Origin: Candidatus Thorarchaeota archaeon
GTDB taxonomy: Archaea; Asgardarchaeota; Lokiarchaeia; Sigyniarchaeales; SOKP01
Assembly (NCBI GenBank): GCA_048883045.1
Contig: JBHLRA010000003.1
Coordinates: forward strand, 1 to 59,501
Direction: 5' to 3'
DNA length: 59,501 nucleotides
The notes under the pieces were generated by a model that saw only the letters and a program-made list of their open reading frames with translations, did not search any database and had not been told where the DNA came from. A program made the translations under genes and the position numbers. Below are positions 10,823 to 59,501 of this stretch, in pieces. Each line of letters starts with the position of its first letter. Positions within the stretch are counted from its first letter, which is position 1.

Positions 10823-10890
10823 TGACAAATTATTTCGCTTATCCAATAAATTACAACACCTGATATAATACCTAATAAATACATTACCAT
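10819..10890 (-). CDS. Hydrophobic micro-ORF (23 aa)
   Basis: MVMYLLGIISGVVIYWISEIICQ. Starts 2 nt after the upstream stop. Its TGA overlaps the next ATG. Confidence 0.3.
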   Translation of the reverse strand: MVMYLLGIISGVVIYWISEIICQ

Positions 10891-10892
10891 TT

Positions 10893-13623: not shown

Positions 13624-13624
13624 A

Positions 13625-23637: not shown

Positions 23638-24278
23638 TTTTCTAACCTTTCAAAATACATAAGATTTTGATAATATGCTTTGATGCCTTTTTTATTTCGC
23701 CATTTTTGCCATTTAAATTGTAATAAAGTTTCTACAGGTCTTATTTGTTGTAAAGTATTATCTACATATTCATCGATCAAAATGTCTGGTCTTATATAAT
23801 TTTTATCTTTAAATTTTTGTTCCCAATATTCTTTTGGTTGACAATTATGATGATGTATTCCACCTTGTCCCGGACCTGCTGCTGAAAATAAAATCCTATC
23901 TGATAATGAATATAAATTATCTAAGAAAATATTTGTGTATTCTGGCTCTATGTGTTCAGCAACTTCAAAGCAAATAGCAAGATCAAATTTTCTGAAAGTA
24001 AACGGATGTTCTATTTTATCTTTTCGTAAATCATATATCCAAATCCTATCAAAATTTTCTACATCAGATAATGCATTAACCGTGCCCTCAATACCAAATG
24101 TTTGTATATTTCTATTAATAAATCCTTTAACAAGATCCCCATTACCACAGCCTATATCAATTACACTTTTAGGTTTTAAAACATCAATTATAGCATCACA
24201 AACAATAGGTATCCGCCAAGCTAAAGATTTACGCCTAGTAAAGAATTTTTTTGAATAAGCTTTGTCTAGATTATACAT
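23628..24278 (-). CDS. Class I SAM-dependent methyltransferase
   Basis: VIDIGCGNGDL (motif I) and CFEVAEHIEP. The track start at 24296 is GTG. ATG 24278 overlaps the stop of micro-ORF 24278..24340 as TAATG. Confidence 0.7.
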   Translation of the reverse strand: MYNLDKAYSKKFFTRRKSLAWRIPIVCDAIIDVLKPKSVIDIGCGNGDLVKGFINRNIQTFGIEGTVNALSDVENFDRIWIYDLRKDKIEHPFTFRKFDLAICFEVAEHIEPEYTNIFLDNLYSLSDRILFSAAGPGQGGIHHHNCQPKEYWEQKFKDKNYIRPDILIDEYVDNTLQQIRPVETLLQFKWQKWRNKKGIKAYYQNLMYFERLEKWK

Positions 24279-24340
24279 TATGCTATTAAGCTCCACATAA
24301 ATAATATACCTAATATAAACCCAAATATAAAAAGCATCAT
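24278..24340 (-). CDS. Hydrophobic micro-ORF (20 aa)
   Basis: MMLFIFGFILGILFMWSLIA. ATGA overlap with the upstream GT stop and TAATG overlap with the downstream ATG. Confidence 0.3.
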   Translation of the reverse strand: MMLFIFGFILGILFMWSLIA

Positions 24341-26876: not shown

Positions 26877-27172
26877 TTATTTTGCCTCCCATGACTGAAT
26901 TTGTTTCTTATCCTCTTTAACCATGATATTTTCTTTAAATACCTTGGATCAATGTTTTTTAAATCATCTTCTAATATTGTCAAATCATTACATATAAATT
27001 CGATCTGATAAACTCTTTGCTTCATATGCACAAACTGCGCCACATTAACCTTAATTCCTGGTTTATTTCGCCATTTAGTAAAAACCTGCCACACATCAGA
27101 AGGAATTATGTCATAACAAATCAAACTGATTGCATTGTTTTTTACAAGACGTTTATGCAATTTTTTATTCAT
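26873..27172 (-). CDS. Hypothetical protein (99 aa)
   Basis: The true start is taken as ATG 27172 (MNKKLHKRLV...). The upstream part of track ORF 26873..27370 is read-through of the stop-free repeat array. Confidence 0.55.
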   Translation of the reverse strand: MNKKLHKRLVKNNAISLICYDIIPSDVWQVFTKWRNKPGIKVNVAQFVHMKQRVYQIEFICNDLTILEDDLKNIDPRYLKKISWLKRIRNKFSHGRQNN

Positions 27173-27423
27173 GACCCTGACCATGCTCCTGATCCTGATC
27201 TTGCCCATGCTCCTGACCCTGACCTTGCCCATGACCATGCCCCTGACCCTGACCATGACCATGCTCCTGATCCTGACCCTGACCCTGACCATGACCTTGC
27301 TCCTGACCATGACCATGACCATGACCTTGACCTTGACCATGACCTTGCTCCTGACCATGACCATGACCATGATCTTGACCTTGACCTTGTTTTTTTGGAT
27401 AATTGTCTTTTACTGATAAACAT
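27169..27423 (-). CDS. Candidate Ser-X dipeptide-repeat peptide, copy 1 (84 aa); coding frame and strand uncertain
   Basis: Conserved ATG: MFISKRQLSKKTRSRSRSWSWSWSGARSW.... The TGA overlaps the ATG of 26873..27172 (ATGA). Confidence 0.35.
   Translation of the reverse strand: MFISKRQLSKKTRSRSRSWSWSWSGARSWSRSRSWSWSWSGARSWSGSGSGSGAWSWSGSGAWSWARSGSGAWARSGSGAWSGS
27173..27389. repeat. Imperfect hexanucleotide array 1 (minus-strand unit G[G/A][T/G]CA[T/A/G])
   Basis: About 36 units punctuated by CAGGAGCA. Open in 5 of 6 frames. Confidence 0.9.
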
Positions 27424-27425
27424 AC

Positions 27426-27644
27426 TCATGACCCTGACCATGACCTTGCTCCTGACCCTGACCATGACCTTGCTCCTGACCATGACCATGACCTTGCTCC
27501 TGACCATGACCATGACCATGATCTTGACCTTGCTCCTGACCATGACCATGACCATGACCTTGACCTTGACCATGACCTTGCTCCTGACCATGACCATGAC
27601 CATGACCTTATTCTTTTGGATAATTGTCTTTTATTAATAAACAT
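27426..27644 (-). CDS. Candidate Ser-X dipeptide-repeat peptide, copy 2 (72 aa); coding frame and strand uncertain
   Basis: Track ORF MFINKRQLSKRIRSWSWSWSGARSW.... Its stop is 2 nt before the copy 1 ATG. Confidence 0.35.
   Translation of the reverse strand: MFINKRQLSKRIRSWSWSWSGARSWSRSRSWSWSWSGARSRSWSWSWSGARSWSWSGARSWSGSGARSWSGS
27429..27608. repeat. Imperfect hexanucleotide array 2
   Basis: Same unit as array 1, about 30 units. Confidence 0.9.
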
Positions 27645-28137: not shown

Positions 28138-28980
28138 TTACCAATCGTATGTCAAAGTTGCATATACTGTCTCATCATTTGTAACCCTGTTGATCCTATA
28201 TCCAACAAATCCAGCCCATCCCCAGGAGCCTCTTGATTGTTTGACACCATGTCCAATTGATGTATATGTATTATCTATTGTCATTCTGGAGATATGGTCT
28301 ATTCCGTAAGCGTTATCAAAATTAACTTTAACCCGGCCCAATTCCAGCCCATTGACAGATTTGAATATGATATTACCAAATGCCCAATATGTACCTTTTG
28401 GGAAAGTGACAATAACTTCTGTGGATGCAGTCCCATTATCATGATCAATTGTTATTTCAGGAGATAATATTTTTATATTTGGCTGATCACCAGCTATTTT
28501 TAACGTTATAGGCGAGTCAGAAGTAACAGTGATGTGAAACTGTGCAAAGCCGTCTGGTTTTACCTTTGCTATTACCTGCGCAGGATTAAAATAAAGTTTT
28601 GTATAATTAACAAATAGTCCAGATCCAGGGGATGCAATTGGTGCACCATAATATTTTGCATTTGTGATTTGATTATAATTTAAGGAATCGGCTTCGGAAT
28701 TTATATCATTATGAAGCTGTATAGCTTGATTTTCAATGACACCAGAATTGTCAATATTAATATAATTATTCGTAGTAGAATTTATACTATGATCATAATT
28801 ATATGTTTGATCCACATCATAATGATAATCCGTATCATTATAATTATTGTACGTGTTTTCGGTAGTGTTATAAGTGCCATAATCATAATAATTATCATTA
28901 TGGTGTGTTGCTCCATCTGCAAAACAATTTACTGCAAAACAAAGCAGAATACAAAGAATAAGTATGATTGATCTTTTCAT
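28138..28980 (-). CDS. Secreted protein with N/Y/D/T low-complexity region and beta-rich C-terminal domain
   Basis: Start moved to ATG 28980 (MKRSIILILCILLCFAVNCFA, signal peptide), preceded by AAAGGGAGG. 280 aa. Confidence 0.65.
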   Translation of the reverse strand: MKRSIILILCILLCFAVNCFADGATHHNDNYYDYGTYNTTENTYNNYNDTDYHYDVDQTYNYDHSINSTTNNYINIDNSGVIENQAIQLHNDINSEADSLNYNQITNAKYYGAPIASPGSGLFVNYTKLYFNPAQVIAKVKPDGFAQFHITVTSDSPITLKIAGDQPNIKILSPEITIDHDNGTASTEVIVTFPKGTYWAFGNIIFKSVNGLELGRVKVNFDNAYGIDHISRMTIDNTYTSIGHGVKQSRGSWGWAGFVGYRINRVTNDETVYATLTYDW

Positions 28981-28997
28981 GTTGCCTCCCTTTAAAT

Positions 28998-29051
28998 AAA
29001 AAAAAATATATCTGGAGTTGATAATATCTACTAATATCAACTCCAGATATA
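28998..29051 (-). terminator. Rho-independent terminator immediately upstream of gene 28138..28980
   Basis: Perfect 17-bp inverted repeat TATATCTGGAGTTGATA / TATCAACTCCAGATATA (29007..29023, 29035..29051). Followed on the minus strand by 9 T. Confidence 0.6.
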
Positions 29052-29515: not shown

Positions 29516-30376
29516 CTATGGTCCAGGTGGGGGAGGGGTTGTACTAGTTGTGGTATTAGATGTGGTGCTAGTACAAGTGCTGGAAAGTGTTGATGTTGTT
29601 GAAGTTTCCGTGCTTGTCGTGGTAGATTCCGACGAAATTGTCGAGGTCGAGGATTCTGTTGAAGAACAGGAACTTGTACTTGATTCGGTTGACTGGGAAC
29701 TTGTCGACGAAATTGTCGAAGAACAGGAACTTGTACTGGAAATCGTTGAAATCGTTGAACTACAGGAACTTGTAGAACTCTGAGTGGAAAGTGTAGATGT
29801 TGAGGATTCAGTAGAACTACAACTTGATGTCGACGAAATTGTCGAAGTTGATGATTCAGTACTTGAACAACTCGAAGTTGTTGAAATTGTTGAACTACAA
29901 GAACTTGTAGTTGATTCTGTACTCGCTGTGGAACAAGAACTTGAACAAGAACTTGAACATGTTGATGTACAAGTACTTGAGCTTGTAGTACTTAGTGTAC
30001 TCGCTGTACTTAGTGTACTTATTGTAGAACAAGAACTTGAACAACTTGAGCTACAAGAACTTGTACAAGATGAGGTAGAGCATGTTGAGGTACAACTTGA
30101 GGTACAACTTGTGGTGCAAGTCGTTGAACATGTTGTAGTACAAGTACTTGTACAAGAACTTGTGCAGCTTGAAGTCGAACAGGTGCTTGTCGTTGTGCTG
30201 GTACATGTACTGGTCGATGTAGTCGTCGTCGTAGTAGAAAACCCAAATAATTCATATACTTGCTCTAATGTAGCTTGCTTTGTAGTTCCTGTATGATTTT
30301 GGTGAACTATTATTCTATCTTGCCAACGCGCTTTATCAACAATTGGATATGCGTTAAAATCACTCATTTTGGGCAT
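29516..30376 (-). CDS. Ser/Thr/Cys-tract protein (45-aa N-terminal domain plus 240-aa low-complexity tract ending PPPPGP); candidate fibre
   Basis: 286-aa ORF. AGGGAGG SD. The tract is almost entirely S, T and C. Confidence 0.7.
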   Translation of the reverse strand: MPKMSDFNAYPIVDKARWQDRIIVHQNHTGTTKQATLEQVYELFGFSTTTTTTSTSTCTSTTTSTCSTSSCTSSCTSTCTTTCSTTCTTSCTSSCTSTCSTSSCTSSCSSSCSSSCSTISTLSTASTLSTTSSSTCTSTCSSSCSSSCSTASTESTTSSCSSTISTTSSCSSTESSTSTISSTSSCSSTESSTSTLSTQSSTSSCSSTISTISSTSSCSSTISSTSSQSTESSTSSCSSTESSTSTISSESTTTSTETSTTSTLSSTCTSTTSNTTTSTTPPPPGP

Positions 30377-32529: not shown

Positions 32530-34026
32530 TTATGACCAATCAATATATAAAGCTGCTTTGTAACTTGCTCCCCGATCTATATTAGAGAAACTTCTAAATG
32601 CCCCTGTTGATGATCCATTTTCCATGACTAATATTTGAATATCATTTCCAGATGCCCAACCCCCACGATTAACAATTTCCTGTATAATAGTTTTAATATC
32701 CGGAGAATCATATGCAGTATCTAAAGTCCAGGCCCCCTCATTATTCCAATTAACACTTGCTGTTGTTAAATTCATTGCCACAACATCTGCACAACTTGTT
32801 GGTGTTGTAGCTGTGTCTTCGTCTTCACCTTTCATTAACCATGCAATGCTGGTTCCTGAATCTGAATCTCCGGCTGTTATTGTTATTTTAGCTGAATCAA
32901 TCGTGGCAGAATTGGGAATATTTATATTTTCAAATTTACATCCCCACGACCAAATCCAATCTCCTGCACCATCACGTCCTATATCATCAATAGAATCTGT
33001 ATTATTAAATGTAACTTCAGTAGAATTAAATACCCAATCATCATTACTGGAATCTGGGTAAAATGTACCTTCTGTTGGTGGGGGAGGTGTACTGGAAGTT
33101 GTTGAATTTGTTGATAAAGTGCTGGCTGAAGATGCCGTGGAACTCTGGGTTGATGTCGACGATTCTGTCGAAATTGTGCTGGAGCAAGTGGAAGTTTGAG
33201 TCGTGGAAGACTGGCTGGAAACCGTTGATTCCGTGGAGGTACAAGAACTAGTGCTGGTACAAGTGCTTGAATTTGTTGATTGTGTACTGATTGTAGATTC
33301 CGATGATTTTGTCGAGGACTGGCTGGAGGTCGACGAAATTGTCGAACAACTAGAACTACAACTGGAAGTAATTCGGGTGGTGCTGGTGCTTGTAGATGAC
33401 TGGCTGGAAATAGTTGATGCTGTAGTGGTTTCAGTGGTACTACTCGTAGATGTACAACTGGTGCTGGATTCCGATGACTGGCTGGAACCTGTTGATATTG
33501 TTGAGCTACAGGTTGACGTACAAGATGTAGTATGTGTTGTGGTGCAGGTACTAGATATAGTGGTGTGACTGGAAGTGCTTGTGCAGCTTGAGGTTAGTGT
33601 TGTCGAGCAAGAACTTGAACAGGAACTTGTACAAGTGCTAGTCGTAGTGGTTGTTGTAGTTGTGGGTACAACCCAATCTGACAGAGAAGATTCAACCATA
33701 AAAGTAATCGTAACTAAACCATGTTCGTTTCTTAACTGACTTAAATTTCCTTGATATGCACCATCCGGGGTCGTAAGCGTCAATACATAATAATTTTTAT
33801 GTAGAGTATAAAGAGTATTATATTGTTCTTGTGTCACATTAGCCTGGAACGTAAATGTACGATCTCCATGTGACCATCCATTGTCCCGGATGTTTATACC
33901 TGTATCAAGTGTTGCCGTTTTGTTGACTCGTCTTGATAAGTCTTGATAGTTGGAACCTGACTCCAACACATCTAAGTTTATATAATCATCCAGGGAAAAA
34001 GTTTGCGCTGATATTGATATTTTCAT
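32530..34026 (-). CDS. Distal-tail-position protein with internal 197-aa Ser/Thr/Cys tract and C-terminal beta-sandwich-like domain
   Basis: 498 aa. Its start overlaps the tape-measure stop. The tract is aa 121..317 (33076..33666) and ends TPPPP. Confidence 0.65.
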   Translation of the reverse strand: MKISISAQTFSLDDYINLDVLESGSNYQDLSRRVNKTATLDTGINIRDNGWSHGDRTFTFQANVTQEQYNTLYTLHKNYYVLTLTTPDGAYQGNLSQLRNEHGLVTITFMVESSLSDWVVPTTTTTTTTSTCTSSCSSSCSTTLTSSCTSTSSHTTISSTCTTTHTTSCTSTCSSTISTGSSQSSESSTSCTSTSSTTETTTASTISSQSSTSTSTTRITSSCSSSCSTISSTSSQSSTKSSESTISTQSTNSSTCTSTSSCTSTESTVSSQSSTTQTSTCSSTISTESSTSTQSSTASSASTLSTNSTTSSTPPPPTEGTFYPDSSNDDWVFNSTEVTFNNTDSIDDIGRDGAGDWIWSWGCKFENINIPNSATIDSAKITITAGDSDSGTSIAWLMKGEDEDTATTPTSCADVVAMNLTTASVNWNNEGAWTLDTAYDSPDIKTIIQEIVNRGGWASGNDIQILVMENGSSTGAFRSFSNIDRGASYKAALYIDWS

Positions 34027-38261: not shown

Positions 38262-38954
38262 TTAAACGTATGGATTGTCGAATGCTGTCGTATATTGCAT
38301 TCTTATATTTAAGACTACTTCGATTATTTTTTCCCCTGGATCTGGAGATATGTCTATTCCGGCTTGATCATAAATAACCTGGCCAACTGCAGTGCCATAC
38401 GGATATATGCGGTCTGAGTCACCCGCTATTGTTGCAGAATCAATACCTGAGACTTGGATTAATTCAGATTGATAATTTCCATCTTGATAGCGAAGTTTGA
38501 GGGTACCGTAAGCATTTGCAGTTGCCCAAGATCCACCATTGATTGTTACATCTGTAACAATAGAAGTTGCTCCACTAATTTTACCTGTTATTGTATTACC
38601 TTCTGAAATTTCATGATCACCTAAAGTGAAATCTAACTCATAAATAGGATTGAACACATTTATTATTAAATCACCTAGAAGAGTTTCACCTAGAACTGAT
38701 GGGTTTTGACTACTTGTAAATTCTCTATATGCTTTGATCTCCACCGGCATATCATGTACAGCTTCAGAATATCTTTTCTCTATATTTTCAAGTCCAGGGA
38801 TGACTAATATAGCAGGTAGTTCAGATTCGTGAATTTGATTACGGCCGCGAATTATTTTAGCATCTGCAAAAGTATTATTATAACCATAAGTAGATTTAAT
38901 ATATTTGAGTTGAGTTATAAGATTCTGAATTACTGTTTCTCGAATAGTATTCAT
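38262..38954 (-). CDS. Neck/tail-terminator-position protein carrying an inserted GSWA module
   Basis: 230 aa. Occupies the lambda gpU position. Residues ~117..170 match a module shared with 46232..47170 and 40286..41908. Confidence 0.4.
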   Translation of the reverse strand: MNTIRETVIQNLITQLKYIKSTYGYNNTFADAKIIRGRNQIHESELPAILVIPGLENIEKRYSEAVHDMPVEIKAYREFTSSQNPSVLGETLLGDLIINVFNPIYELDFTLGDHEISEGNTITGKISGATSIVTDVTINGGSWATANAYGTLKLRYQDGNYQSELIQVSGIDSATIAGDSDRIYPYGTAVGQVIYDQAGIDISPDPGEKIIEVVLNIRMQYTTAFDNPYV

Positions 38955-39163: not shown

Positions 39164-39763
39164 TTAAAGTCTAGATAACATATAATCAATTTGTGATGCA
39201 AGTTGTTTGTCAAGTCTAGCATTTGCTTTTTCTTGCACACGATCAAATGTTGCTTTATTTGATAAAACGTCTGGAATACGAGATCCATATAATTGTTTTA
39301 TTACTGACCGTCCTGTTCGGCTTGTTCGTGGTGGTTGTTCTATTTCAAATAACCCAACATGGCCAGACGGCATTGTCATTCTAAAAGCATGAGCTAATAA
39401 TGTTTTACCCCGGTTTCTTTGTATTGTCACATAAACTTTCTTTGCAAAACTGGCTTTATTTCCACGTTGATTACTATATTGAATTAATGGAACATTTGCA
39501 CTTTTTGTTGAAATAGATCCCCATAGTTTCAGACTTGATGCATAACTAAAAACAAAAGTTTTTTCTGCATCTTTACCAGTTTGTTTATTGAGAAAAGTTT
39601 TAGTAAGATTTACATCTGCTACTATCTCGTTACTTACATCAGTTTTAACACCATTAAGAGTATTATTGATGGCCCTAGTTAATACACCAGGGCCACCGTG
39701 ATAAATTGCATCAAGTAAAGCTTGAGTTTGTTTTAATTCAACTTGTATTGTTACATTGGCCAC
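39164..39763 (-). CDS. Tail completion protein (lambda gpZ-like), GTG start
   Basis: 199 aa. The N-terminal pattern (ANVTIQVE...AINNTLNGVKTDVSNEI) and the position resemble the minor tail protein Z family. Confidence 0.45.
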   Translation of the reverse strand: MANVTIQVELKQTQALLDAIYHGGPGVLTRAINNTLNGVKTDVSNEIVADVNLTKTFLNKQTGKDAEKTFVFSYASSLKLWGSISTKSANVPLIQYSNQRGNKASFAKKVYVTIQRNRGKTLLAHAFRMTMPSGHVGLFEIEQPPRTSRTGRSVIKQLYGSRIPDVLSNKATFDRVQEKANARLDKQLASQIDYMLSRL

Positions 39764-39768
39764 AATCT

Positions 39769-40284
39769 TTATTTTTGTTTAGGTACTGTATCTAAACTAT
39801 TCTGAGGATATAGAGTTATTTTATCTTTCATTTTACTAATAATTTCTGCCTTTTCAGATGTAGTTGCTAAATCATCTTCTAAAATTACAATATCTTCATG
39901 TGTAAAATCTTCTACAGTAAATTTATATTTAGGTTGCACATGGATTTCATACCAATCCGGAGGCGTTGCATTTTCGTCAAACCAATATTTTACAAGATCT
40001 CCTTCATCATTGTAAAATCTAGCTGTTTCAACTTGGATTAAATCAGTTAAAGTTGTCAATTCTATTTTTGTCATATTAGCAATGTGGATAATTTCAAATA
40101 ATTCATAACCTGGCCCTGTTAAATCAACATCATCATCCTGTATTTCTACAATATCCCATATATCACAGATTCCTTCACGTTCAGTTTCCAAACCAATACA
40201 AACTAATTGAACAGCTTGACATGTTGTAACAATACAAAAACATAAAATTAATAATACTACTAACATTTTAATAAATCTTTTCAT
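39769..40284 (-). CDS. Secreted paralogue of 41909..42313
   Basis: Start moved to ATG 40284 (MKRFIKMLVVLLILCFCIVTTCQA). Shares IQDDDVDLTGPGYELFEI and YW..........WYEI..PKY with the 134-aa ORF. Confidence 0.55.
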   Translation of the reverse strand: MKRFIKMLVVLLILCFCIVTTCQAVQLVCIGLETEREGICDIWDIVEIQDDDVDLTGPGYELFEIIHIANMTKIELTTLTDLIQVETARFYNDEGDLVKYWFDENATPPDWYEIHVQPKYKFTVEDFTHEDIVILEDDLATTSEKAEIISKMKDKITLYPQNSLDTVPKQK

Positions 40285-40285
40285 A

Positions 40286-41908
40286 TTATAGCCTTTCGTC
40301 ATTGTCAATATCATCCCATAATGGTAGATTTGCGTCGGATGATAAATTTGTACCATGTGCCTGCGCCAATGTATCACCCGCACCTAAATGGAAATCATCT
40401 CCACCTTCATTATTAAAGGTTACATCCCCAAAAATATTGGTACATACTGCATAATTTTTCCCAGATATAAAAATATCATCATTTAATCCAAGTTTACCTA
40501 TACCTGCTTCTGCTATAGATGTTACATATGTATATGTTGTATCAGTTGTGTTTCTTACAACATTGCCAACTATTATACCTGAAAATGTTTCCCCTGAATC
40601 TACTAATTTATTTGCTTCTGTTCCATCTGCTGTTCCAGTTGTATGACTTGTAACAGATGCAACATAAGCAATTTGTGAATTTCCTATATTATAACTAGAT
40701 GCTATATTTATAGCACCATAAAAGGGGTATCCCGTTGCATATATATCATTTACAATACAATTATGTACTATTAAACTAGTGAATCCTTGCATCCCATTAG
40801 AGCAATTGAATATAGTAATATTGTATGCGTATCCTTGCATAGATATAGCTATATTACCATCTTTTGCCCCATTTTCCCAATCATATATAATACAATTATA
40901 TGCATATGTAATATTATTATTATTTATACCATATGCATTATTATCCCCACCTGTTAAGGTAGCTTTAATTATAGAATAACCAATATGTACATAACTTGCA
41001 GTCCCATATACTCCAACACATCCACTACCACTATTATTATATAATTGTAAATTTTCTAACTTTACATGTCCATCCGAAACAGTTATTAAATCTCCTGTTC
41101 CTGTTTCCAAGAACCATTTATTCCCATTCCATATTCCAGAATGTTTTTGGTCATTTACACTTTCTTCATTTCCTTGTGGTGCAAAAACATATAATGTATG
41201 TTCCACATCTGTTGTAGCTCCATCAATAGTTACATTTGTGCTGTCTGCTGTTTGGTCATCATGATCATAATAGAGACAAATATGTGCCATAATATCAGCA
41301 TTACCAGCAGTCAAATTAGTATCATTTATATGATTTGCATCTAAATATCCTGCCTCTGCTGCCGATAAAGAAGCATATTCATGATGAATAGAATTAACAG
41401 TTTCAGGCCCAGCAACATTACCTGCATCTGTTCCATCTGGATCTTTAACAACAAATTCATCAACCATGTTACCTTGCAAAGTGCTATTTGTTGTTAATAT
41501 ATTTGCAGATCTAGTTGGCCGGACACGATTTATATTTTCTCCAGATTGAAATGTTCCTATAACTTTGCGGAAATAAATATAACCTGCTGCATCAGTTCCA
41601 GCCCAAGAACCAGATGATAATTCTACAGCTCTGACAATTCCTATTGCTCCAGATGTTACACCTCGAAGCTTATTATTTATTAATGGTTCGACTGACCCAG
41701 AATTAAAAGCTATACGGCATGGTGCAATATAAACAAGAGTTGGCCCTGATCCAAAATCAATACAATCTCCTGCACCGATATTACCTGTTTGGTCTACAGT
41801 TAAAGTTGCAACTCCTGACGTTATAGATAATGTAGGTGATCCTGTTTTTATATCACCTGTTCCGAAAGGTGACGCACTAAAAAATACTACATTTGCCGCC
41901 GTTGCCAT
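40286..41908 (-). CDS. Beta-helix-like fibre/spike protein (possible glycan-binding or depolymerase) with N-terminal SGSWAG module
   Basis: 540 aa. Repetitive N-x-I/N-C-I turns (NNITYAYNCIIYD, YNITIFNCSNG, IVHNCIVNDI). Residues ~78..128 carry the shared module. Confidence 0.45.
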   Translation of the reverse strand: MATAANVVFFSASPFGTGDIKTGSPTLSITSGVATLTVDQTGNIGAGDCIDFGSGPTLVYIAPCRIAFNSGSVEPLINNKLRGVTSGAIGIVRAVELSSGSWAGTDAAGYIYFRKVIGTFQSGENINRVRPTRSANILTTNSTLQGNMVDEFVVKDPDGTDAGNVAGPETVNSIHHEYASLSAAEAGYLDANHINDTNLTAGNADIMAHICLYYDHDDQTADSTNVTIDGATTDVEHTLYVFAPQGNEESVNDQKHSGIWNGNKWFLETGTGDLITVSDGHVKLENLQLYNNSGSGCVGVYGTASYVHIGYSIIKATLTGGDNNAYGINNNNITYAYNCIIYDWENGAKDGNIAISMQGYAYNITIFNCSNGMQGFTSLIVHNCIVNDIYATGYPFYGAINIASSYNIGNSQIAYVASVTSHTTGTADGTEANKLVDSGETFSGIIVGNVVRNTTDTTYTYVTSIAEAGIGKLGLNDDIFISGKNYAVCTNIFGDVTFNNEGGDDFHLGAGDTLAQAHGTNLSSDANLPLWDDIDNDERL

Positions 41909-42313
41909 TTATTTTTTCTTCTTTGCTGGAGGTTCTTGTTCGTCATTATTTTCTGGTAATAATGTAAATGCTGTCAAAATTGTATCTATTATTGCTAATT
42001 TTGTAGCTTTATCGGTATTAGGATTTTTTAATTTATTCAGATCACCTACTGAAACACCTGTAAGATTATGATTATATTTTGGCATATTATTAATTTTATA
42101 CCAAATTAAATCTTCTGAATTTAACCAATAACGACCACCATTTTCAAATTTTCTATCCGGCCATTTTTCATTGAATATGGATTTAATTTCAGCTTTTGTA
42201 ACATTAGGGATATCAAATATTTCAAAATTGGCATAACCTGCCCCAGTTAATTCAACATCATCATCATGAATCTCTGTTATATTATAATTAGTGTCTAAGA
42301 CTGCCCTAGCCAT
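41909..42313 (-). CDS. Hypothetical protein, paralogue of 39769..40284
   Basis: 134 aa. IHDDDVELTGAGYANFEI motif. Confidence 0.55.
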   Translation of the reverse strand: MARAVLDTNYNITEIHDDDVELTGAGYANFEIFDIPNVTKAEIKSIFNEKWPDRKFENGGRYWLNSEDLIWYKINNMPKYNHNLTGVSVGDLNKLKNPNTDKATKLAIIDTILTAFTLLPENNDEQEPPAKKKK

Positions 42314-44744
42314 TATCAGCTCCTATTGACCAACCTGGCCCTGTAGTGGTTGTCGTGGTTGAGGTTGAAGTGCAAGATGTTGTTGTCGATGCCGTTTCTT
42401 CTGGAGAAGATGCCGTGGAACTGCAACTAGAACTACAAGTTGAGGTTTGGGTTGACGTGGAAGTTGTTGAAATTGTTGATAATGTAGACTCTGATGATTC
42501 TGTGGAGCTACAAGTTGATGTCTGGCTGGAAATCGTTGATTGACTTGACTCTGTAGATGCACTGCTAAAACTACTTGAGCAACTTGTACTTTCAGTCGTT
42601 GAAGTTTCAGTTGTCTGTGTAGTTTGAGTACTTGTACAAGATGTGGTATGTGTTGTTGATTCGGTACTATATGTTGATTCCGTTGATTCAGAAGTTTCAG
42701 ATGTTACACTGGTGCAACTCGACGAGCTGGTCGAGGTATGGGAAGTTTTTGTCGTTTCCGTAGAGGTACAGGTTGAGGTCTGGGTTGTCTGGCTACTGGT
42801 AGAGCTGGTACATGTGGTGGAATGGGTAGTAGGTTCTTGATATTCAGTTACAGATGATGTGCTACAACTGCTTGAAGTACAAGAGGTTTCAGTTGATTCG
42901 CTGGAAATTGTTGATTCCGTTGATGTTTCTGACGTGCTACAAGATGTAGTAGAAGTATGTGTTGAGGTACAAGATGTAGTATATGAGCTACAAGTACTTG
43001 TTTTTGTTGAAGTAGATGTAGATTCAGTACTTGAACTCGACGAAATTGTCGAAGTTGAAGATTGTGTACTTGCTGTAGATTCAGTCTGGCCAGTAGTGCT
43101 GCAAGTGCTTGATTCTGTTGATGTTGATGTAGAAATAGTGGATTCTGAACTCTGGGAACTTGTTGAAGTTTGAGTTGTCTGAGTAGAAGTACAAGATGTT
43201 GTGGATGTGCAAGTAGATGAACCACTAGATATGGTAGTTTCCGTCGTTTCCGTTGATGTGCTTGAGGTTTGGGTGCTTGAAGTCTGTGTGGTGGAAGTTT
43301 CCGTAGTTCCTGATGTCTGGCTGGAACTGCTTGAGCTAAACGTAGTTTCAGACGTAACACTGGAAACTGTTGATGTACTTGAAGTTTGAGACGTTTGTGA
43401 ACTTTGGGATGTAGAACTTTGTGTGGTGGAAGTTTCTGTTGTCTGAGAGGTTTCGGTCGAGGTGGAAGATGTTTCTGTGGTTCCTGTAGAAATTGTTGAT
43501 CCTGTTGAACTTTGAGTCGATACACTAGATATTGTGGTTTCTGTACTGGTAGAGCTACAAGATGTGGTGTGGCTGGAAATACTTGATGTAGAAGAAGTTT
43601 GGGTAGTTTCCGTGGAACTGCTTGAGCTGAGCGTGGTTACAGAAGTTGAGCTACAAGTGCTTGAAATTGTTGACTCTGTAGATGTGCTACAAGATGTAGT
43701 GGTTTCTGTTGAGCTGGTACTAGATATTGTGGATTGACTTGAAACTGTTGATTCTGTTGATGTACAGCTTGAAGTACTTGTCCCACTTAAAGTTTGAGTT
43801 GATGAACTACAAGTAGTTGAAATTGTTGATTTTGTTGAACTTGTAGTAGATTGGCTTGAAACAGTTGATTGACTTGTAGTTTCAGATGTGGTGCAAGATG
43901 TAGAAGTACAAGTTGTTGATTCTGTTGAAATTGTAGATTCTGTCGTTTGTGTAGTTGTAGAAGTTTGAGTCGTAGTAGAAGTTGTCGTCGTGGCATTATA
44001 TTCTAATACCTCAACCATATAAAAATCTGCATTATCATGGACTACAACTTGCTGTATCTCATAAGTTGCTCCATGAGTTATTATTCTATCACGTTTCTTA
44101 GGGTCACGGCTTAGACTTGCAATATCAGATTTTAGTAATTCTATTCCAATTAATTCTGTAACAGCAAAATTGCCACCATAACCAGGCTGGTTTGTTGATT
44201 CCTTTATATAATCAATTCCAGTTAAAGTTATATTCGCCTCACCAGTAATTGGAACATAAATTGCTGTATCACCAAATTCAAATAAATCCAAAGCCGCAGA
44301 ATGAATTATATCATCTAATGTTTGTTCAAGTGTTGGATTTGAAGCTGTTCCAGATATCATTACAGCCACAGTATAAAAATCATTATCACTTGCAATTATT
44401 TGTTTTATTGTATATATGGTTTCGTCGGTTTGAATCTGGTCAAATTCTACTGGATCGCGGCCAAGACTAGAAATATCTGATTTCAAGAATTCGATAGAAA
44501 TATATTGTGCTACTGTATAATTTGAGCTGTAACCTGGTTGTTCAGTTAAATTATCAGTAATATCAATACCCGTTAATAAGATTGATGAACCGCCGCCATA
44601 AGGTACATAGACGGCGGCATCACCAAAATTAAAAAGCTGGCTGGCGGATGCAGTTATACTACTGCTTATCGTCATGAATAATACGCCCAAGATGATCACG
44701 GATAGTATTACCCGTGTTATCAAGGATTTTTCTTTTATCCGCAT
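42306..44744 (-). CDS. Signal-peptide protein with duplicated N-terminal domain and about 550-aa Ser/Thr/Cys tract
   Basis: 812 aa. N-terminal hydrophobic segment. Two ~95-aa repeats (FGDAAVYVP... / FGDTAIYVP...). The tract is aa 251..801 (42342..43994). Confidence 0.7.
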   Translation of the reverse strand: MRIKEKSLITRVILSVIILGVLFMTISSSITASASQLFNFGDAAVYVPYGGGSSILLTGIDITDNLTEQPGYSSNYTVAQYISIEFLKSDISSLGRDPVEFDQIQTDETIYTIKQIIASDNDFYTVAVMISGTASNPTLEQTLDDIIHSAALDLFEFGDTAIYVPITGEANITLTGIDYIKESTNQPGYGGNFAVTELIGIELLKSDIASLSRDPKKRDRIITHGATYEIQQVVVHDNADFYMVEVLEYNATTTTSTTTQTSTTTQTTESTISTESTTCTSTSCTTSETTSQSTVSSQSTTSSTKSTISTTCSSSTQTLSGTSTSSCTSTESTVSSQSTISSTSSTETTTSCSTSTESTISSTCSSTSVTTLSSSSSTETTQTSSTSSISSHTTSCSSTSTETTISSVSTQSSTGSTISTGTTETSSTSTETSQTTETSTTQSSTSQSSQTSQTSSTSTVSSVTSETTFSSSSSSQTSGTTETSTTQTSSTQTSSTSTETTETTISSGSSTCTSTTSCTSTQTTQTSTSSQSSESTISTSTSTESSTCSTTGQTESTASTQSSTSTISSSSSTESTSTSTKTSTCSSYTTSCTSTHTSTTSCSTSETSTESTISSESTETSCTSSSCSTSSVTEYQEPTTHSTTCTSSTSSQTTQTSTCTSTETTKTSHTSTSSSSCTSVTSETSESTESTYSTESTTHTTSCTSTQTTQTTETSTTESTSCSSSFSSASTESSQSTISSQTSTCSSTESSESTLSTISTTSTSTQTSTCSSSCSSTASSPEETASTTTSCTSTSTTTTTTGPGWSIGADNG

Positions 44745-44816
44745 CTTCCATCCATGGAGGGACTAAATAAATAGGCTCCAATATAATTTCTCTCTGGGGG
44801 ATAATCGTTTCTACCG

Positions 44817-45149
44817 TCATTTATTATCCCCCGAAGCTATATAAAGAGAATAAGTTTTTGCTGCATCATAACCAGTAGGTGTAAATTTTACTCCATCAAG
44901 TAAAGCATTTATCTGTAATGTATAAGGACCGTTGATTAGATCAATTGTGCTTGCCATGTCTTCATATGTATCAGATCCAGGTGTTTTAATTGATACTGTC
45001 ATAGTTCCGGCAATTACAGGTGTAGCAGATGGTACAAATTGAATTTGATGAAATAAAGCACCATTGGCATCGGTTAGGCTGACGGTTTGTGCGCCGTCAG
45101 CCTGTGACTTATCCTCAACTGAATTTTTAATAGTTCCGATATATGGCAT
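44817..45149 (-). CDS. Hypothetical head-module protein
   Basis: 110-aa ORF directly after the capsid gene. GGAGG SD. Confidence 0.5.
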   Translation of the reverse strand: MPYIGTIKNSVEDKSQADGAQTVSLTDANGALFHQIQFVPSATPVIAGTMTVSIKTPGSDTYEDMASTIDLINGPYTLQINALLDGVKFTPTGYDAAKTYSLYIASGDNK

Positions 45150-46231: not shown

Positions 46232-47170
46232 TTAACCAGAAGTCCTTGTTACAATTCCTTTGTCTGCAAGCTGATTCAAAGCTGCTGTTTTTTGAGCTGC
46301 TGTGGCCCCTGACGGCCATTCGAGATAATCCGAAACTATCTCTGCATCTCTTACAATTGCTACTCCAGGTTGATCCGTGGCAGCAGTGGCCGTCATTGCA
46401 CCCGCAATTGTTGCTACATTAGTATTACCACCAACATTGAGATTTTCGGCAACAAATGTCCCATTATGAGTATCAACAGTTAAAGTTCCCGCTGCATCAC
46501 CTCCAGCCCAAGAACCAGATGATAAAGAAACAGCCACAACACGGGCAGTTGCAGCAGAGGTTGCACCTACAACAGTATCATTGGGGATAATCTCATAAGT
46601 TCCACCAGATGTGAAGGTTCGGGTATACTCACCTGAAGCTGAAGCATCAACGGCATCATATAAGATTCCGTAAGCTATTGCTGAACCATCTACACCTGAA
46701 AAATTAATAGCACGGACCTGGCCACCACCGGCAGGAACAGCAATTGTAAAGGTATCACCATAAACAAAATCAGTTCCCGCATCAGTCAATGTGAAATTAA
46801 TTTCATCACTCGTAAAAACACCTGTTTGACCTGCACCAGGATCAATAGCACAAATTCCAATGGTTTCACTATTGGGATTGACTACTGAAAAAACACCGCC
46901 ATTAGCTACTGCTTGAATACAAGTTAGGGTATAAGTTCCTACTATTACATTGACTCCACCAGTAACAGCAGTACAGGTTCCATTTCCTGTATTAGTTCCG
47001 CCGGCGGTTCCGGTAGTGGGTACGGTTCCAGCAGTTATTTTACCCAGAACTGCAGCAACACCTAAATCCTGAGCTGCTAGCACAGTTACTTCTTCACGGG
47101 AATGTAATACATCACTTTCCCATTTTAGGGTTCTTTGAATATCATAAGATTGTGTTGTATCAGTTGGCAT
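46232..47170 (-). CDS. Head decoration-like protein with large insertion
   Basis: 312 aa. gpD-family-like ends (EEVTVLAAQDLGVAAVLGKITAG ... AIVRDAEIV). Insertion includes the SGSWAG module (aa ~195..250). Confidence 0.5.
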   Translation of the reverse strand: MPTDTTQSYDIQRTLKWESDVLHSREEVTVLAAQDLGVAAVLGKITAGTVPTTGTAGGTNTGNGTCTAVTGGVNVIVGTYTLTCIQAVANGGVFSVVNPNSETIGICAIDPGAGQTGVFTSDEINFTLTDAGTDFVYGDTFTIAVPAGGGQVRAINFSGVDGSAIAYGILYDAVDASASGEYTRTFTSGGTYEIIPNDTVVGATSAATARVVAVSLSSGSWAGGDAAGTLTVDTHNGTFVAENLNVGGNTNVATIAGAMTATAATDQPGVAIVRDAEIVSDYLEWPSGATAAQKTAALNQLADKGIVTRTSG

Positions 47171-50207: not shown

Positions 50208-50432
50208 TTAATAACCTTTGCCAGTTGCAACATAACGATGTCTTGCATTTCCGGCGGTTAAATTTATATCACGTTTTATTAAAGCTCTAAGTTTTATTAA
50301 ATCATCAAGATTAGATTCTGAATATTGTATTGTTTTACCTGAAGAAAAACGTACTAAGACAACACGGGTGCCTGTACTAAGATCTGTTATTGCTGATTCT
50401 ACAGAAGTTAGATCTGAAGATGTAAAAGCCAT
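50208..50432 (-). CDS. Head-to-tail joining protein, lambda gpW-like
   Basis: 74 aa. Position immediately upstream of the portal. Pattern L..VE.AI..L..G..VV.V....G..I.Y. Confidence 0.6.
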   Translation of the reverse strand: MAFTSSDLTSVESAITDLSTGTRVVLVRFSSGKTIQYSESNLDDLIKLRALIKRDINLTAGNARHRYVATGKGY

Positions 50433-53340: not shown

Positions 53341-53445
53341 TTAATAAATATATTCTTCCTCTTCTTCATCCCAATAATTATTTTTTTCATCATCTTCATC
53401 ATCTTCCAACCATAAATCTTCTGGGTCTATATAATCTTCTATCAT
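53341..53445 (-). CDS. Highly acidic 34-aa micro-ORF abutting terL
   Basis: MIEDYIDPEDLWLEDDEDDEKNNYWDEEEEEYIY. ATGA overlap with the upstream stop. Its TAA is directly followed by the terL ATG. Confidence 0.45.
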   Translation of the reverse strand: MIEDYIDPEDLWLEDDEDDEKNNYWDEEEEEYIY

Positions 53446-54194
53446 AACACTTTCTCCTCTACTTTATTTATAAAATCCTGGCCAATTACATTTATTACGT
53501 CTTGTTTATCTGAATCTGACCATTTTTCCCAATTTGGCATTTTTCCACGTTTAGCGGTATTAAAACGAATAGATCTAACAAAATCATAATATGTTCGAGG
53601 CGTAAATCTTAATCCCAAAAATCCAACCATTTTATACCAACCATTGCCCATTTCACTGTATAGATCTTTTATATCAAATATACAATCAGCAGAATCTATA
53701 TAACATGATATCTTTTCTTTCCAATACCATGCAAGTTGTTTTTTTCCTGTATCAATTTTTGGATCATTACTTTTGAGCCAACTTACACCATTCTCATATC
53801 CTCGATTAGCCATAGAAGGAATAAAAGTTCTATAATCACGTACAAGACCAACTATTTTGCAACCAGGAAAAGTTTTCCGCAATGGTTCAGCCAAAGAGAA
53901 TAAATTATGATTACATTCAATATAATAGCATTTTTTATAGAGAATCCTGGCACAGCGCACATTCGCCATACGAGCTTTGCGACATGCCCGGACTGCATCA
54001 TTAAATTTAAGTTTTTTGGCATGATACAATAAACCGATCGGTTTTATCATAGGTGGCGGTTCATGTACTGCTAAGACTGAATTGTAACAAACATTTAATG
54101 CCCATGCAAGCCATTGTGTTGCTGTGCGACCAGTTGATAAGAAGAAGATTGGTGTTACAGGGCCTGAGATATGTTTATTTTGGAGCATAATCAT
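53442..54194 (-). CDS. Sulfotransferase-fold protein (paralogue of 10070..10822)
   Basis: 250 aa. IFFLSTGRTATQWL...HEPPP...YIECNH...GLVRD...AWYWKEKI parallels IFTLTTGRSGTALL...HEPKP...YIETCH...ILHRD...CYWYTQEI. Confidence 0.45.
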   Translation of the reverse strand: MIMLQNKHISGPVTPIFFLSTGRTATQWLAWALNVCYNSVLAVHEPPPMIKPIGLLYHAKKLKFNDAVRACRKARMANVRCARILYKKCYYIECNHNLFSLAEPLRKTFPGCKIVGLVRDYRTFIPSMANRGYENGVSWLKSNDPKIDTGKKQLAWYWKEKISCYIDSADCIFDIKDLYSEMGNGWYKMVGFLGLRFTPRTYYDFVRSIRFNTAKRGKMPNWEKWSDSDKQDVINVIGQDFINKVEEKVL

Positions 54195-54555: not shown

Positions 54556-55070
54556 AATTTATATTCTCCTATTCCTATAGTATCACACCAAGGCTTGATG
54601 CCATTATTATATATCTCTAAAGGTTTTATATTCACCCAGGAAAACAAAGTCTTCATTCCGTCTGGCAATATACGCCAATAATCAGGTTTATGGTGTTCCG
54701 GCCCTGTGCCTGGAGCTATGAGACATATTAAACATCCTTTTGGATCTGCTACAGATATAAGTGATTGCATGAACATGAAATGATTGTCAACATGTTCAAG
54801 AGTCTGGCCAGAGATAATGATATTGAATTTCATTATAAGTTGAGATCCTAGATAATCTTTTGGGCTAACTATTATATCAACATTCGGGCCATCAACAATA
54901 TCAACTCCAAGATAACTACAAGAGAATTCAGTATGCTTCTGTAATAGATTATTATAGGTCTTGTGGCCATGAACAGAAAGCGAACCTATATCAAGTATAT
55001 TATAAAATTTATTCTTTATTGGATATTTAGTAAAAAAATTATCCATTTCTTTTAAGCTGCTTTTATGCAT
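54552..55070 (-). CDS. Class I SAM-dependent methyltransferase
   Basis: 172 aa. ILDIGS (motif I-like). IIISGQTLEHV. Confidence 0.6.
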   Translation of the reverse strand: MHKSSLKEMDNFFTKYPIKNKFYNILDIGSLSVHGHKTYNNLLQKHTEFSCSYLGVDIVDGPNVDIIVSPKDYLGSQLIMKFNIIISGQTLEHVDNHFMFMQSLISVADPKGCLICLIAPGTGPEHHKPDYWRILPDGMKTLFSWVNIKPLEIYNNGIKPWCDTIGIGEYKL

Positions 55071-55753
55071 TTAAGATAACCTCCAGAGTTATAAGTTATT
55101 CCAAATCGCTCACAAGTTCTATCAACAAGAAACCGGCCACAATAATTAAGAAATTCGTCCACAGCTTCAGCAGGGCCAGGTTTAGGACCTGTGTTAAGTC
55201 CGTGGTAGCATATTGTATCTTCGACGATGTAATATTGGTCTAAAGTAATGAATTGAGAATATATGTTAAGGTTTGCAAGTGTGTCAGCATAAGTATGGGA
55301 GCCGTCATCAATAACCATAATTTTAGGATTATCATGTTTTAAAAAATGTCCTAATCTCCAGCCATTTTTTATTAAATAGTCCAAATCACTTATTACTTTT
55401 TCATCAGTGGCTTTACCTTTTAAATATGAAATACCATCATAATTCATTGTATTATGATTACCTGGATCAATCGTAATTATTGTTGCAAATCGCTCTTGCC
55501 CATGAATAGCAGTTAATAAATTCCGTAAATATTTAGCCGATCCTCCTTTATAAGTTCCAATCTCAATAATAATATCAGGTTTAGTACGATAAATGATTTC
55601 TTGATATATAAATAAATCAAGTGGGTTTTTCAAGATCGGCAAGCCACAATAATGAGATTGCTGCAAAGCTTTATGAAACATAGGCAAAAAATCTTTTAGT
55701 TTCATGTTTAATAATGATTCAAGTTTTTGTGGTTGGGCTTGTTTTGGCATCAT
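55052..55753 (-). CDS. CmcI-family (cephalosporin hydroxylase-like) methyltransferase
   Basis: 233 aa. GLPILKNPLDLFIYQEIIYRTKPDIIIEIGTYKGGSAKYL closely follows the CmcI family signature. Confidence 0.75.
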   Translation of the reverse strand: MMPKQAQPQKLESLLNMKLKDFLPMFHKALQQSHYCGLPILKNPLDLFIYQEIIYRTKPDIIIEIGTYKGGSAKYLRNLLTAIHGQERFATIITIDPGNHNTMNYDGISYLKGKATDEKVISDLDYLIKNGWRLGHFLKHDNPKIMVIDDGSHTYADTLANLNIYSQFITLDQYYIVEDTICYHGLNTGPKPGPAEAVDEFLNYCGRFLVDRTCERFGITYNSGGYLKCIKAA

Positions 55754-55896
55754 TCACCATTCCATAATTTCTCAATAGCATTCTTAAAACCATTATTAGC
55801 AACACATACTCCAAATTCAACTGCACCTAAAGGAATCCATATTGGCGAGCCTATTATAATAACCAAACTTATTAAGATATATTTTATTACTTTCAT
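55750..55896 (-). CDS. Small membrane protein (48 aa)
   Basis: Start moved to ATG 55896 (MKVIKYILISLVIIIGSPIWIPLGAV), which overlaps the upstream stop as TAATG. Confidence 0.45.
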   Translation of the reverse strand: MKVIKYILISLVIIIGSPIWIPLGAVEFGVCVANNGFKNAIEKLWNGE

Positions 55897-56477
55897 TATG
55901 ATTGCTCCGTCCAATGAAGATGATTTTTGCCACGTTTGCGAATAATACTTAATCCGCAATGTGGTCCAGGTAATGTTACACATTCATAATTATGAAACCA
56001 AAAAGAAGGTTCGATAAATTTTTCATGCAAACTGTGACCCACTTTCCATGCATCATTACAATATCCAGGCTTAAGATATTTTTTGTTTATCGGGTAAGTA
56101 TCATGTAGTAAAATTAAACCAGTGCCGGGTGTTACAAATTCCGACCATGTGAGAAAATCTTGTTTTAATGAATTATAAGCATGATTTGCATCGATGTATA
56201 ATAAATCTATTGTCAAATCTTCTGGCCAGAGTTTAGCAGCTTCTTGGGTTGATTTTTCAATAACTTGTATTGATATCTGTTTCTTAATCCAAGCATCCTC
56301 TTTTTTGAGATCTATATATTTTTTTAAGTTTATATCACACCCAAACGCATAACTTTGAACATATGGCACAACAGCATTAAAAACATAACCTGCTGCAATT
56401 CCAAGTTCTACATAAACTTTAGGTTTAAAAAGACGTGCAAGTTCTACAATTAATGGTTTGTGTTCATTCTGTGTCAT
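55896..56477 (-). CDS. Class I SAM-dependent methyltransferase (Methyltransf_24-like)
   Basis: 193 aa. VYVELGIAAG and LLYIDANHAYNSLKQD motifs. Confidence 0.65.
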   Translation of the reverse strand: MTQNEHKPLIVELARLFKPKVYVELGIAAGYVFNAVVPYVQSYAFGCDINLKKYIDLKKEDAWIKKQISIQVIEKSTQEAAKLWPEDLTIDLLYIDANHAYNSLKQDFLTWSEFVTPGTGLILLHDTYPINKKYLKPGYCNDAWKVGHSLHEKFIEPSFWFHNYECVTLPGPHCGLSIIRKRGKNHLHWTEQS

Positions 56478-59490: not shown

Positions 59491-59501
59491 AGTCTGCGGT
59501 C
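59491..59501. repeat. Right copy of 11-nt direct terminal repeat AGTCTGCGGTC
   Basis: Identical to 1..11. Confidence 0.95.

Follow-up and report, generated by a model that had tools for sequence, protein, structure and literature searches.

A doubled gpFII-type stopper with a long Ser/Thr/Cys-rich tract in the neck module of a lambda-type phage, and a candidate system for its O-glycosylation

The sequence considered here (the window) is a stretch of 59,501 nucleotides (nt) from a sediment metagenome (contig JBHLRA010000003.1). It poses a question about one open reading frame (ORF), located among capsid, neck and tail genes, whose conceptual translation combines a signal-peptide-like N-terminus, two tandem repeats and a very long tract rich in Ser, Thr and Cys. 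Is the product exported from the infected cell, or is it a part of the virion? Counted from the furthest upstream ATG, the ORF has 812 codons and occupies positions 42306..44744 of the minus strand, as reported in the first-pass annotation of this DNA; all genes and domains of the window located by coordinates below are on the same strand. The region is reproduced in an independent Logan contig from the same source run, with 0 differences over positions 41800-45200 at a depth of 42. Because this independently built contig is identical, the low-complexity part of the gene is not the artefact of one assembler. The reading that we consider probable, taken as a whole, is that the gene belongs to an uncultured siphovirus and encodes a doubled gpFII stopper which is translated from Met24 of the ORF, continues into a tract of 551 amino acids (aa), and probably carries O-linked glycans on this tract.

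The two repeats span aa 25-129 (domain 1; 44358..44672) and aa 142-247 (domain 2; 44004..44321), numbered from the first codon of the 812-codon ORF. They share 49% identity (E value 7e-34) with a repeat period of 117 aa. Pfam family PF05354 (Phage_attach, lambda gpFII) covers both repeats in two stretches (40.5 bits vs a curated cutoff of 26), the best stretch in domain 2 being aa 150-237. In an AlphaFold (AF2) model of aa 24-262, the predicted local distance difference test (pLDDT) score of the domain 1 core is > 90, and the pattern of strands is alike in both domains. The model of domain 2, for which there was no alignment depth, is of low confidence (pLDDT about 60), and this counts against the doubled-stopper assignment. 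At a probability of 1.0, a Foldseek search with the model returned stoppers from solved necks, namely gpFII itself from lambda (8xow_f, 8k37_M) and its counterparts from Chi, R4C and T1; the template modelling (TM) scores to 8xow_f, 8k37_M, 8vhx_F and 8gtf_M were 0.48-0.59 when normalised to the target. Owing to the two-domain query, the E values of the stopper matches were no better than about 2e-3.

The gene context is of the same kind. On one side of the gene is the major capsid gene and on the other are the Z/U genes, and the genome also encodes a gpW, the partner of FII in lambda-type necks. The gpW head-tail adaptor (Ad1; 50208..50432) was recognised by PF02831 (25.8 bits vs a cutoff of 22.5) and phrog_75 (E value 9e-12), and the Z-like tail completion protein (Neck1; 39164..39763) by phrog_27 (E value 3e-17) together with a weak match to Pfam Minor_tail_Z. 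The U-like tail terminator (38262..38954), which has an inserted module of ~45 aa, was recognised by phrog_4204 and by a match in two pieces to the terminator of Marinobacter phage PS3. With the terminase of lambda gpA type, a D-like decoration protein (46232..47170; Pfam), an E-type major capsid protein, a tail tube and a tape measure of 837 aa, they form a lambda-type set; the genes between gpW and D are portal- and protease-like by reading and position only. The tail-tube protein is 52% identical to that of a Manatee Spring siphovirus and 43% identical to that of PS3. In PS3 the gene order is capsid, small gene, FII (105 aa), Z, U and tube, and the same order is found here. No second FII-family match was obtained among the other genes of the window that were searched against Pfam and PHROG. 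By sequence, fold and gene context, the protein belongs to the FII family.

Within this family the architecture is exceptional. A profile search of 5.8 billion proteins recovered the named FII proteins and yielded 182 FII-family proteins in total, all of them 76-198 aa long. Where the family norm is a single domain of about 100-120 aa, the present product has 789-812 aa, depending on the start codon, with two domains and the 551-aa tract; the combination of two FII domains with a long tract is unprecedented among the 182 homologues found. When 1.84 billion representatives were searched exhaustively with HMMER, the two-domain query gave one match, a protein of 102 aa (P0001; E value 7e-4). A word-indexed search of 5.8 billion proteins gave no match to the protein, and neither did nucleotide and protein searches of a phage collection with its N-terminal part. 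IMG/VR and GTDB contigs scanned with the tail-tube protein yielded nothing, and no reads from the phage were found among the raw reads of two sister runs, sampled at ~1 in 100. It is thus the combination of a doubled FII with the tract that is new; the FII stopper and the glycosylation of phage virions are already known.

For the substitution tests, one relative lineage was available, which is ~90% identical and was seen in three runs (X2-X4) of another study. Its domain 1 has about 90% nucleotide identity with the domain 1 described here, and domain 2 aligns only in patches at >= 80% identity; as judged from these alignments, domain 2 diverges faster than domain 1. The better conservation of domain 1 suggests that it sits in the constrained ring, with domain 2 being more exposed. 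Between the two domains the relative has an additional 348 nt (116 codons) in frame, where its contig positions 2040 to 2431 correspond to positions 44273 to 44316 of the window. Since 116 codons come very close to the repeat period of 117 aa, a third copy of the FII domain is likely in the relative, as judged by the size of the insert alone. FII domain number and tract length both vary between these close relatives.

The remainder of the protein is occupied by the tract (aa 251-801; 42342..43994), delimited by its composition: T 37.4%, S 37.2%, E 6.7%, Q 5.3% and C 4.4%, with S and T together making up 75% and proline present at 2 of the 551 positions. It is followed by the C-terminal 11 residues GPGWSIGADNG (42309..42341), and the last 8 nt of the ORF (42306..42313) are shared with the start of the next gene. 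Both the tandem repeats and the S/T/C-rich tract, described in the first-pass annotation as ending 11 residues before the C-terminus, are therefore upheld. So is its description of this tract as the largest modification-ready one in the genome, as far as size is concerned, the other two being of 217 and 252 aa. The former (33061..33711), which ends in PPPP, is an internal linker in a 498-aa tail protein (32530..34026) whose gene is directly downstream of the tape-measure gene. The latter (29519..30274), which ends in PPPPGP, makes up most of a 286-aa protein (29516..30376). Both proteins lack a signal peptide and are encoded in the tail module. In part of the 286-aa protein, Cys occupies every fourth position through about 20 turns (SSCT SSCT STCT TTCS ...), a density much higher than in the neck protein. 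Disulfides formed after release, metal binding and S-glycosylation are candidate roles for the Cys residues.

Several frames stay open across the low-complexity DNA of the tract, and the comparison with the relative indicates which of them is used. Over aa 452-560, there are 37 differing sites, distributed 25/9/3 on codon positions 3/1/2. In the frame of the ORF these amount to 22 synonymous and 12 non-synonymous codon changes, as opposed to 13:21 in one of the other frames and 5:29 or worse in the remaining four. S and T are exchanged for each other in seven of the 12 replacements, and every Cys of this segment is kept. The third-position bias, together with the 22:12 ratio in this frame, shows that the tract is translated and constrained in sequence, beyond its composition; coding by another frame or strand through the tract is ruled out by the same substitution pattern. 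At two places the tract of the relative lacks codons, about 48 at one and about 58 at the other (~106 in total), and these indels are in frame. Every one of the six Ser and four Thr codons is in use. A recent origin by expansion of a DNA repeat was considered and rejected, as Tandem Repeats Finder (TRF) shows only tiny arrays and the three tracts of the genome share only patches of 20-120 nt.

Glycosylation of such tracts would need an initiating transferase, and the product of 21339..22556 is the candidate that we propose from its predicted structure. This GT-A glycosyltransferase (GT2; 405 aa) matches Pfam Glycos_transf_2 with 32.7 bits (cutoff 23.3). Its AF2 model, built from an alignment of 49 sequences, has a pLDDT of 92.6. 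All of the top 50 PDB matches of the model are polypeptide N-acetylgalactosaminyltransferases (ppGalNAc-Ts), with E values of 3e-13 to 2e-10 over about 425 aligned columns, and they include the human enzymes T1, T2, T4, T7, T10 and T12, fly PGANT9 and Toxoplasma T3. In a profile-to-PDB search, the DAHC motif of GT2 falls on the Mn-binding DAHC of the ppGalNAc-Ts and its YGGGE on their WGGEN; residues D161, H163, G287-E290 and H314 are invariant in the 49 homologues. The protein has neither a ricin-type lectin domain nor an N-terminal hydrophobic segment, and its C-terminus is helical in the model. Because the lectin domain and the membrane anchor are missing, we refer to the enzyme as ppGalNAc-T-like and have not filed it under GT27.

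GT2 is not isolated. Together with the genes at 22685..26876 it forms a likely sugar-handling cluster downstream of the tail genes. In addition to a 257-aa protein with an EDD motif, whose gene adjoins that of GT2, the cluster encodes an S-adenosylmethionine (SAM) methyltransferase (23628..24296; above the Pfam threshold) and two GT-B-like proteins (24337..25509 and 25500..26876), the second with an EX7E motif. Two further candidates for glycan modification are encoded upstream of the terminase gene, namely a protein of the rhamnosyl O-methyltransferase/CmcI family (55052..55753; Pfam E value 8e-30) and a Methyltransf_24 protein (55896..56477; Pfam E value 3e-11). Homologues of GT2 are numerous (475 at an E value <= 0.001), and all those that were looked at are in phage-like contigs. 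In two of these contigs (L004, 3902..11008; L009, 3549..11671), the GT2 homologue directly follows a gpJ-like tail gene, and the accompanying clusters include a GT1, a hexapeptide acetyltransferase, methyltransferases, an epimerase and a UDP-glucose dehydrogenase. From their gene content, these clusters look like a recurrent phage glycan cassette. Searches with the transferases gave no tblastn match in the phage collection and no useful match to the PDB from single sequences.

The strongest of the competing explanations accepts the neck stopper and questions the glycans. The tract would be unmodified and would serve as a flexible spacer, an entropic bristle or a tether, and the transferases and methyltransferases would serve DNA hypermodification, conversion of the host surface or another protein. 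We regard this as unlikely. DNA and host glycans are common targets of phage glycosyltransferases (PMC12619734), and the enzymes encoded here could instead modify DNA, the host envelope or other proteins. At the sequence level, the GT2 profile finds its best PDB match in TarP (a wall-teichoic-acid GlcNAc transferase), via the generic N-terminal GT-A region. Both GT-B-like genes remain below the Pfam threshold (16.9 bits each). Moreover, no long S/T tracts were found within +-10 kb of the GT2 homologues of six other phage contigs, although their structural modules lie mostly outside these flanks. All of these points weigh against glycosylation of the tract. On the other side, the match of GT2 over the whole protein fold is specifically to the ppGalNAc-Ts and includes the DxH and GGE motifs. 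No match to a deoxyuridine or deoxycytidine monophosphate (dUMP/dCMP) hydroxymethylase was obtained among the genes searched against Pfam. Three long S/T tracts along with several sugar-modifying genes in 59 kb would be a striking coincidence. The pairing of enzyme and substrate is a prediction, yet a coherent one which sequence, fold and context support.

The second point of contention is the start of the protein. The conceptual translation from ATG 44744 has the textbook n-h-c pattern of a signal peptide, and its first 23 codons (44676..44744) read as the n- and h-regions. These codons lie inside another gene, o53 (53 codons; 44659..44820), located between a 110-aa gene and the FII gene, which overlaps the 812-codon ORF by 86 nt in a different frame. 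The ATG of o53 overlaps the TGA of the 110-aa gene (ATGA), and it is preceded by a Shine-Dalgarno (SD) sequence, GGGGGA, of -8.6 kcal/mol, stronger than those of 71% of the genes in this genome. No Pfam or PHROG match was found for o53. A frame-specific codon model was trained on 46 genes of the window; in windows of 66 nt it is correct in about 94-97% of cases. For the extension, the highest-scoring class is the +1 off-frame of a real gene (by 8 bits); for the overlapping part of o53, it is the gene's own frame (by 12 bits). Compared with the relative, o53 in its own frame has 6 synonymous and 1 non-synonymous changed codons. In the extension, 0 synonymous and 4 non-synonymous changes were found (L8W, I9M, R11L and V12A), a frame test drawn from four substitutions only. 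In codons 25-141 of the FII frame there are 22 synonymous and 7 non-synonymous changes (Fisher p = 0.008 against codons 1-23), and purifying selection is seen from codon 29 on. On this sequence evidence o53 is a real gene, and we regard codons 1-23 as probably an off-frame reading of it.

Homology gives the same answer. The initial Met of P0001 aligns to Met24 (MTINSILDAAGQDI vs MTISSSITASASQL), and the repeat unit starts at residue 25, its counterpart in the second copy being TLDDIIHSAALDLF. Since both P0001 and the repeat start there, the supposed c-region (SSSITASAS) with its ASA cleavage site corresponds to the N-terminal helix of FII; the predicted cleavage (ASA/SQ) would fall within this helix and not before a mature domain. 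The end of o53 is 14 nt past the ATG of Met24, which gives an overlap of 17 nt with the coding sequence (CDS) from Met24, and the contig of P0001 has the same arrangement, with 14 nt shared by the upstream gene and the start of FII. An argument from SD strength in favour of Met24 was dropped, the site of Met24 being the weakest of the three candidate starts (-3.1 kcal/mol). What supports Met24 is homology, together with the repeat boundary, the substitution pattern and the coupling geometry, and on these grounds Met24 (ATG 44675..44673) is most likely the functional start, for a CDS of 789 aa (42306..44675). The signal peptide proposed in the first-pass annotation does exist in the conceptual translation, but the frame under selection is that of o53 (6:1 vs 0:4).

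A dual start is a further reading. The cytoplasmic neck protein would be made from Met24, and a minor isoform from Met1, overprinted on o53, would carry a signal anchor and act as a mucin-like protein in or on the envelope, for instance in exclusion or masking. Several observations speak for such an isoform and against Met24 as the sole start. A 19-mer this hydrophobic occurs in only 0.15% of the stop-free +1-frame windows of the genome, and here it is set in a textbook n-h-c layout. Many genes here have an SD no better than that of Met1 (-4.9 kcal/mol). The frame is open in the relative, where all four changes keep or raise the hydrophobicity, and 51 nt of the overlap are without any substitution. 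The phage encodes at least two other apparently genuine signal-peptide proteins (39769..40284 and 28138..29040). Furthermore, if o53 dominates the constraint, substitutions alone cannot exclude translation of the extension. Against it are the overlap of 86 nt with a gene under clear purifying selection, the lack of a synonymous-site signal in the frame of the extension together with its off-frame score in the codon model, and the position of the cleavage site inside the N-terminal FII helix, which is part of the repeat. In addition, the 182 FII homologues are all 198 aa or shorter, which leaves no room for a large added domain. We consider an additional Met1 isoform to be improbable, and the dual-start reading built on it slightly more so.

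Far less probable still is a product from Met1 only, i.e., a Sec-exported or membrane-anchored mucin-like protein that is not in the virion. The signal-peptide-like N-terminus would agree with it, and an analogy may be drawn with the serine-rich repeat adhesins of Gram-positive bacteria, which are glycosylated in the cytoplasm and then exported. However, the FII domains in question are the sole ones found in a genome which otherwise has a complete lambda-type neck set, they are under purifying selection (22:7), and the N-terminal codons are occupied by o53; the other two tract proteins have no signal peptide and are in the tail module. Export is further disfavoured because head-tail joining is cytoplasmic. 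The idea of an exported protein for masking or exclusion, put forward when the ORF was first described, is for these reasons not supported. Finally, that the tract is non-functional low-complexity DNA or the extension of a decaying gene, as its several open frames and its different length in the relative might suggest, can be dismissed as extremely improbable in view of the 25/9/3 bias and the 22:12 ratio in this frame only, the in-frame indels, the conserved Cys and the use of all six Ser codons.

Returning to the doubled stopper translated from Met24, the neighbouring genes offer possible partners. Three genes between FII and Z (39769..42313) have no counterpart at this position in PS3 and no family matches in Pfam or PHROG; they encode proteins of 134, 540 and 171 aa and may specify a collar or neck appendage. 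The 540-aa protein (40286..41908) has beta-helix-like repeats. The 171-aa protein (39769..40284) is, past its N-terminus, a paralogue of the 134-aa protein (41909..42313); the two genes flank the 540-aa gene within the neck module, that of the 134-aa protein being directly after the FII gene. The 171-aa protein starts with MKRFIKMLVVLLILCFCIVTTCQA, which is signal-peptide-like, in a stretch that no other gene overlaps. A module of ~45 aa, G.(T/S)SGA.g.V..v.l.sGSWAg.dAaGtL..., is common to the D-like protein, the 540-aa protein and the tail terminator, in which it forms the insertion, and may be a shared surface-exposed domain.

Other features of the window concern the genome as a whole. It is of low GC content (~33%), all of its long ORFs are on the minus strand, and its ends (1..11 and 59491..59501) share an exact overlap of 11 nt (AGTCTGCGGTC); the window is probably a complete genome of ~59.5 kb that has been circularised or else carries cos ends. 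A degenerate hexamer, TGACCC/TGACCA, is repeated in ~72 copies at 27172..27607; this array is located between the tail genes and the glycosyltransferase cluster, has a super-period of 48 nt and gives rise to spurious ORFs on both strands. Also between the tail and transferase genes is a 300-aa ORF (28138..29040), an internal start of which gives a clear signal peptide (MKRSIILILCILLCFAVNCFA); it has a weak match to the WGxxGxxG family and a region rich in N, Y and D, and from its sequence the product resembles a secreted protein. Additional modification of DNA or glycans is hinted at by three regions (3156..5801, 10070..14773 and 53442..54194), which encode a DNA polymerase of family A with a fused domain of the uracil-DNA glycosylase (UDG) superfamily, a 3'-phosphoadenosine 5'-phosphosulfate (PAPS) reductase/DUF3440 protein adjoining a ParB_N protein, and two weak sulfotransferase-like proteins.

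In the mechanism that we propose, translation would start at ATG 44675, coupled to the termination of o53, and would give a cytoplasmic protein of 789 aa without a signal peptide, laid out as two tandem FII beta-barrels, the 551-residue tract and the tail of 11 residues. Domain 1 would form part of the FII ring, with gpW above it and the U terminator beneath, and domain 2 with the tract would point outward, such that each neck bears a collar of flexible whiskers. In lambda, FII is a hexamer, and there would be six whiskers per neck if the same holds here. At 0.25-0.36 nm per residue, the contour of a whisker would be about 140-200 nm, a length comparable to that of the tail, for which about 125 nm is expected from the 837-aa tape measure. 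The tracts of the FII protein and of the two tail proteins would be O-glycosylated in the cytoplasm before assembly, the ppGalNAc-T-like GT2 starting the glycan and the other transferases and the O-methyltransferases extending and capping it. The outcome would be a mucin-like glycan brush which shields the virion or adheres weakly to the polysaccharide matrices of the sediment. The 134-, 540- and 171-aa proteins may add a collar. We thus infer a neck stopper with long, putatively O-glycosylated whiskers. This retains most of the substance of the other proposal made for the ORF at the outset, that of a capsid or neck fibre with an uncleaved hydrophobic segment and a modification-ready tract: the neck protein, the conserved tract, and the ppGalNAc-T-like enzyme and sugar genes in the genome are in its favour, but the hydrophobic segment is most likely untranslated in this frame.

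A bolder version of this mechanism may also be considered, to which we would give somewhat less than even credence. According to it, the phage has its own mucin-type O-glycosylation system, by which three virion proteins become "phage mucins"; FII is a modular anchor of two or three domains, the copy number of which varies between close relatives; the whiskers are glycan bottle-brushes about as long as the tail; and the regularly spaced Cys residues may be additional sites of S-linked glycans, or form disulfide cross-links. Irrespective of this version, if the tract is glycosylated, it would provide acceptors of the size of mucin domains together with the type of enzyme that starts mucin O-glycosylation in animals, and GT2 with peptides from the tract would be a testable enzyme-substrate pair. 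It would also extend the glycosylation of virions beyond the mycobacteriophage cases that are cited in PMC12619734. It would, moreover, show that gpFII, normally a minimal stopper, can be duplicated and serve as the anchor of a fibre, and would suggest how phages of sediments or biofilms tune stickiness, shielding or stability. There is also a lesson for annotation, in that choosing the longest ORF across a short overlapping gene produced a convincing but probably false signal peptide and, at the same time, hid the conserved 53-codon gene o53.

Lambda gpFII is among the closest known systems. The likeness extends to the family, the beta-barrel with its N-terminal helix, the place between capsid and Z/U genes and the presence of gpW. 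In contrast to the single-domain members of 76-198 aa, two FII domains (perhaps three in the relative) are combined here with a tract of 551 aa. Fibres or collars at the head-tail junction are known from other phages, including the T4 whiskers (fibritin), the neck passage structures of lactococcal phages and the collar appendages of phi29, and as in those cases the neck module contains extra genes (here 39769..42313). Those appendages are, however, separate folded proteins (coiled coils, beta-helices), whereas the appendage predicted here is a disordered tract fused to the stopper.

With regard to glycosylation, cytoplasmic modification of Ser-rich tracts is established for the serine-rich repeat adhesins Fap1, GspB and SraP, which are O-glycosylated by GtfA/GtfB, a GT-B followed by a GT-A enzyme. 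Unlike the present tract, in which no periodicity is seen, these adhesins have short periodic repeats, an LPXTG anchor and an accessory Sec system, and no such genes were among the Pfam matches here. The mucin domains of eukaryotes and their GT27 enzymes are similar in the dense, non-repetitive Ser/Thr tracts and in the use of a GT-A enzyme with DxH and GGE motifs; they differ from the present system in that the tract here has almost no proline (2/551) and 4.4% Cys, and GT2 has no lectin domain or anchor and only 12-15% identity. In mycobacteriophages, glycans have been reported on the C-termini of capsid and tail-tube proteins and have been proposed to act in shielding (Freeman et al. 2023, Cell Host Microbe, as cited in PMC12619734). 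The mycobacteriophage system resembles the present one in its phage-encoded glycosyltransferases, in acceptor segments at the C-termini of virion proteins and in a modification that is necessarily cytoplasmic. The genome examined here likewise holds one or more glycosyltransferase genes, along with putative Ser/Thr acceptor tracts in three neck and tail proteins. The host group is a different one, and the acceptors described there are C-terminal segments of capsid and tube subunits, in contrast to the tracts of 217-551 aa on a stopper and on tail-end proteins. Finally, unlike in the mycobacteriophages, the candidate initiating enzyme is here ppGalNAc-T-like, an assignment drawn from sequence, fold and context.

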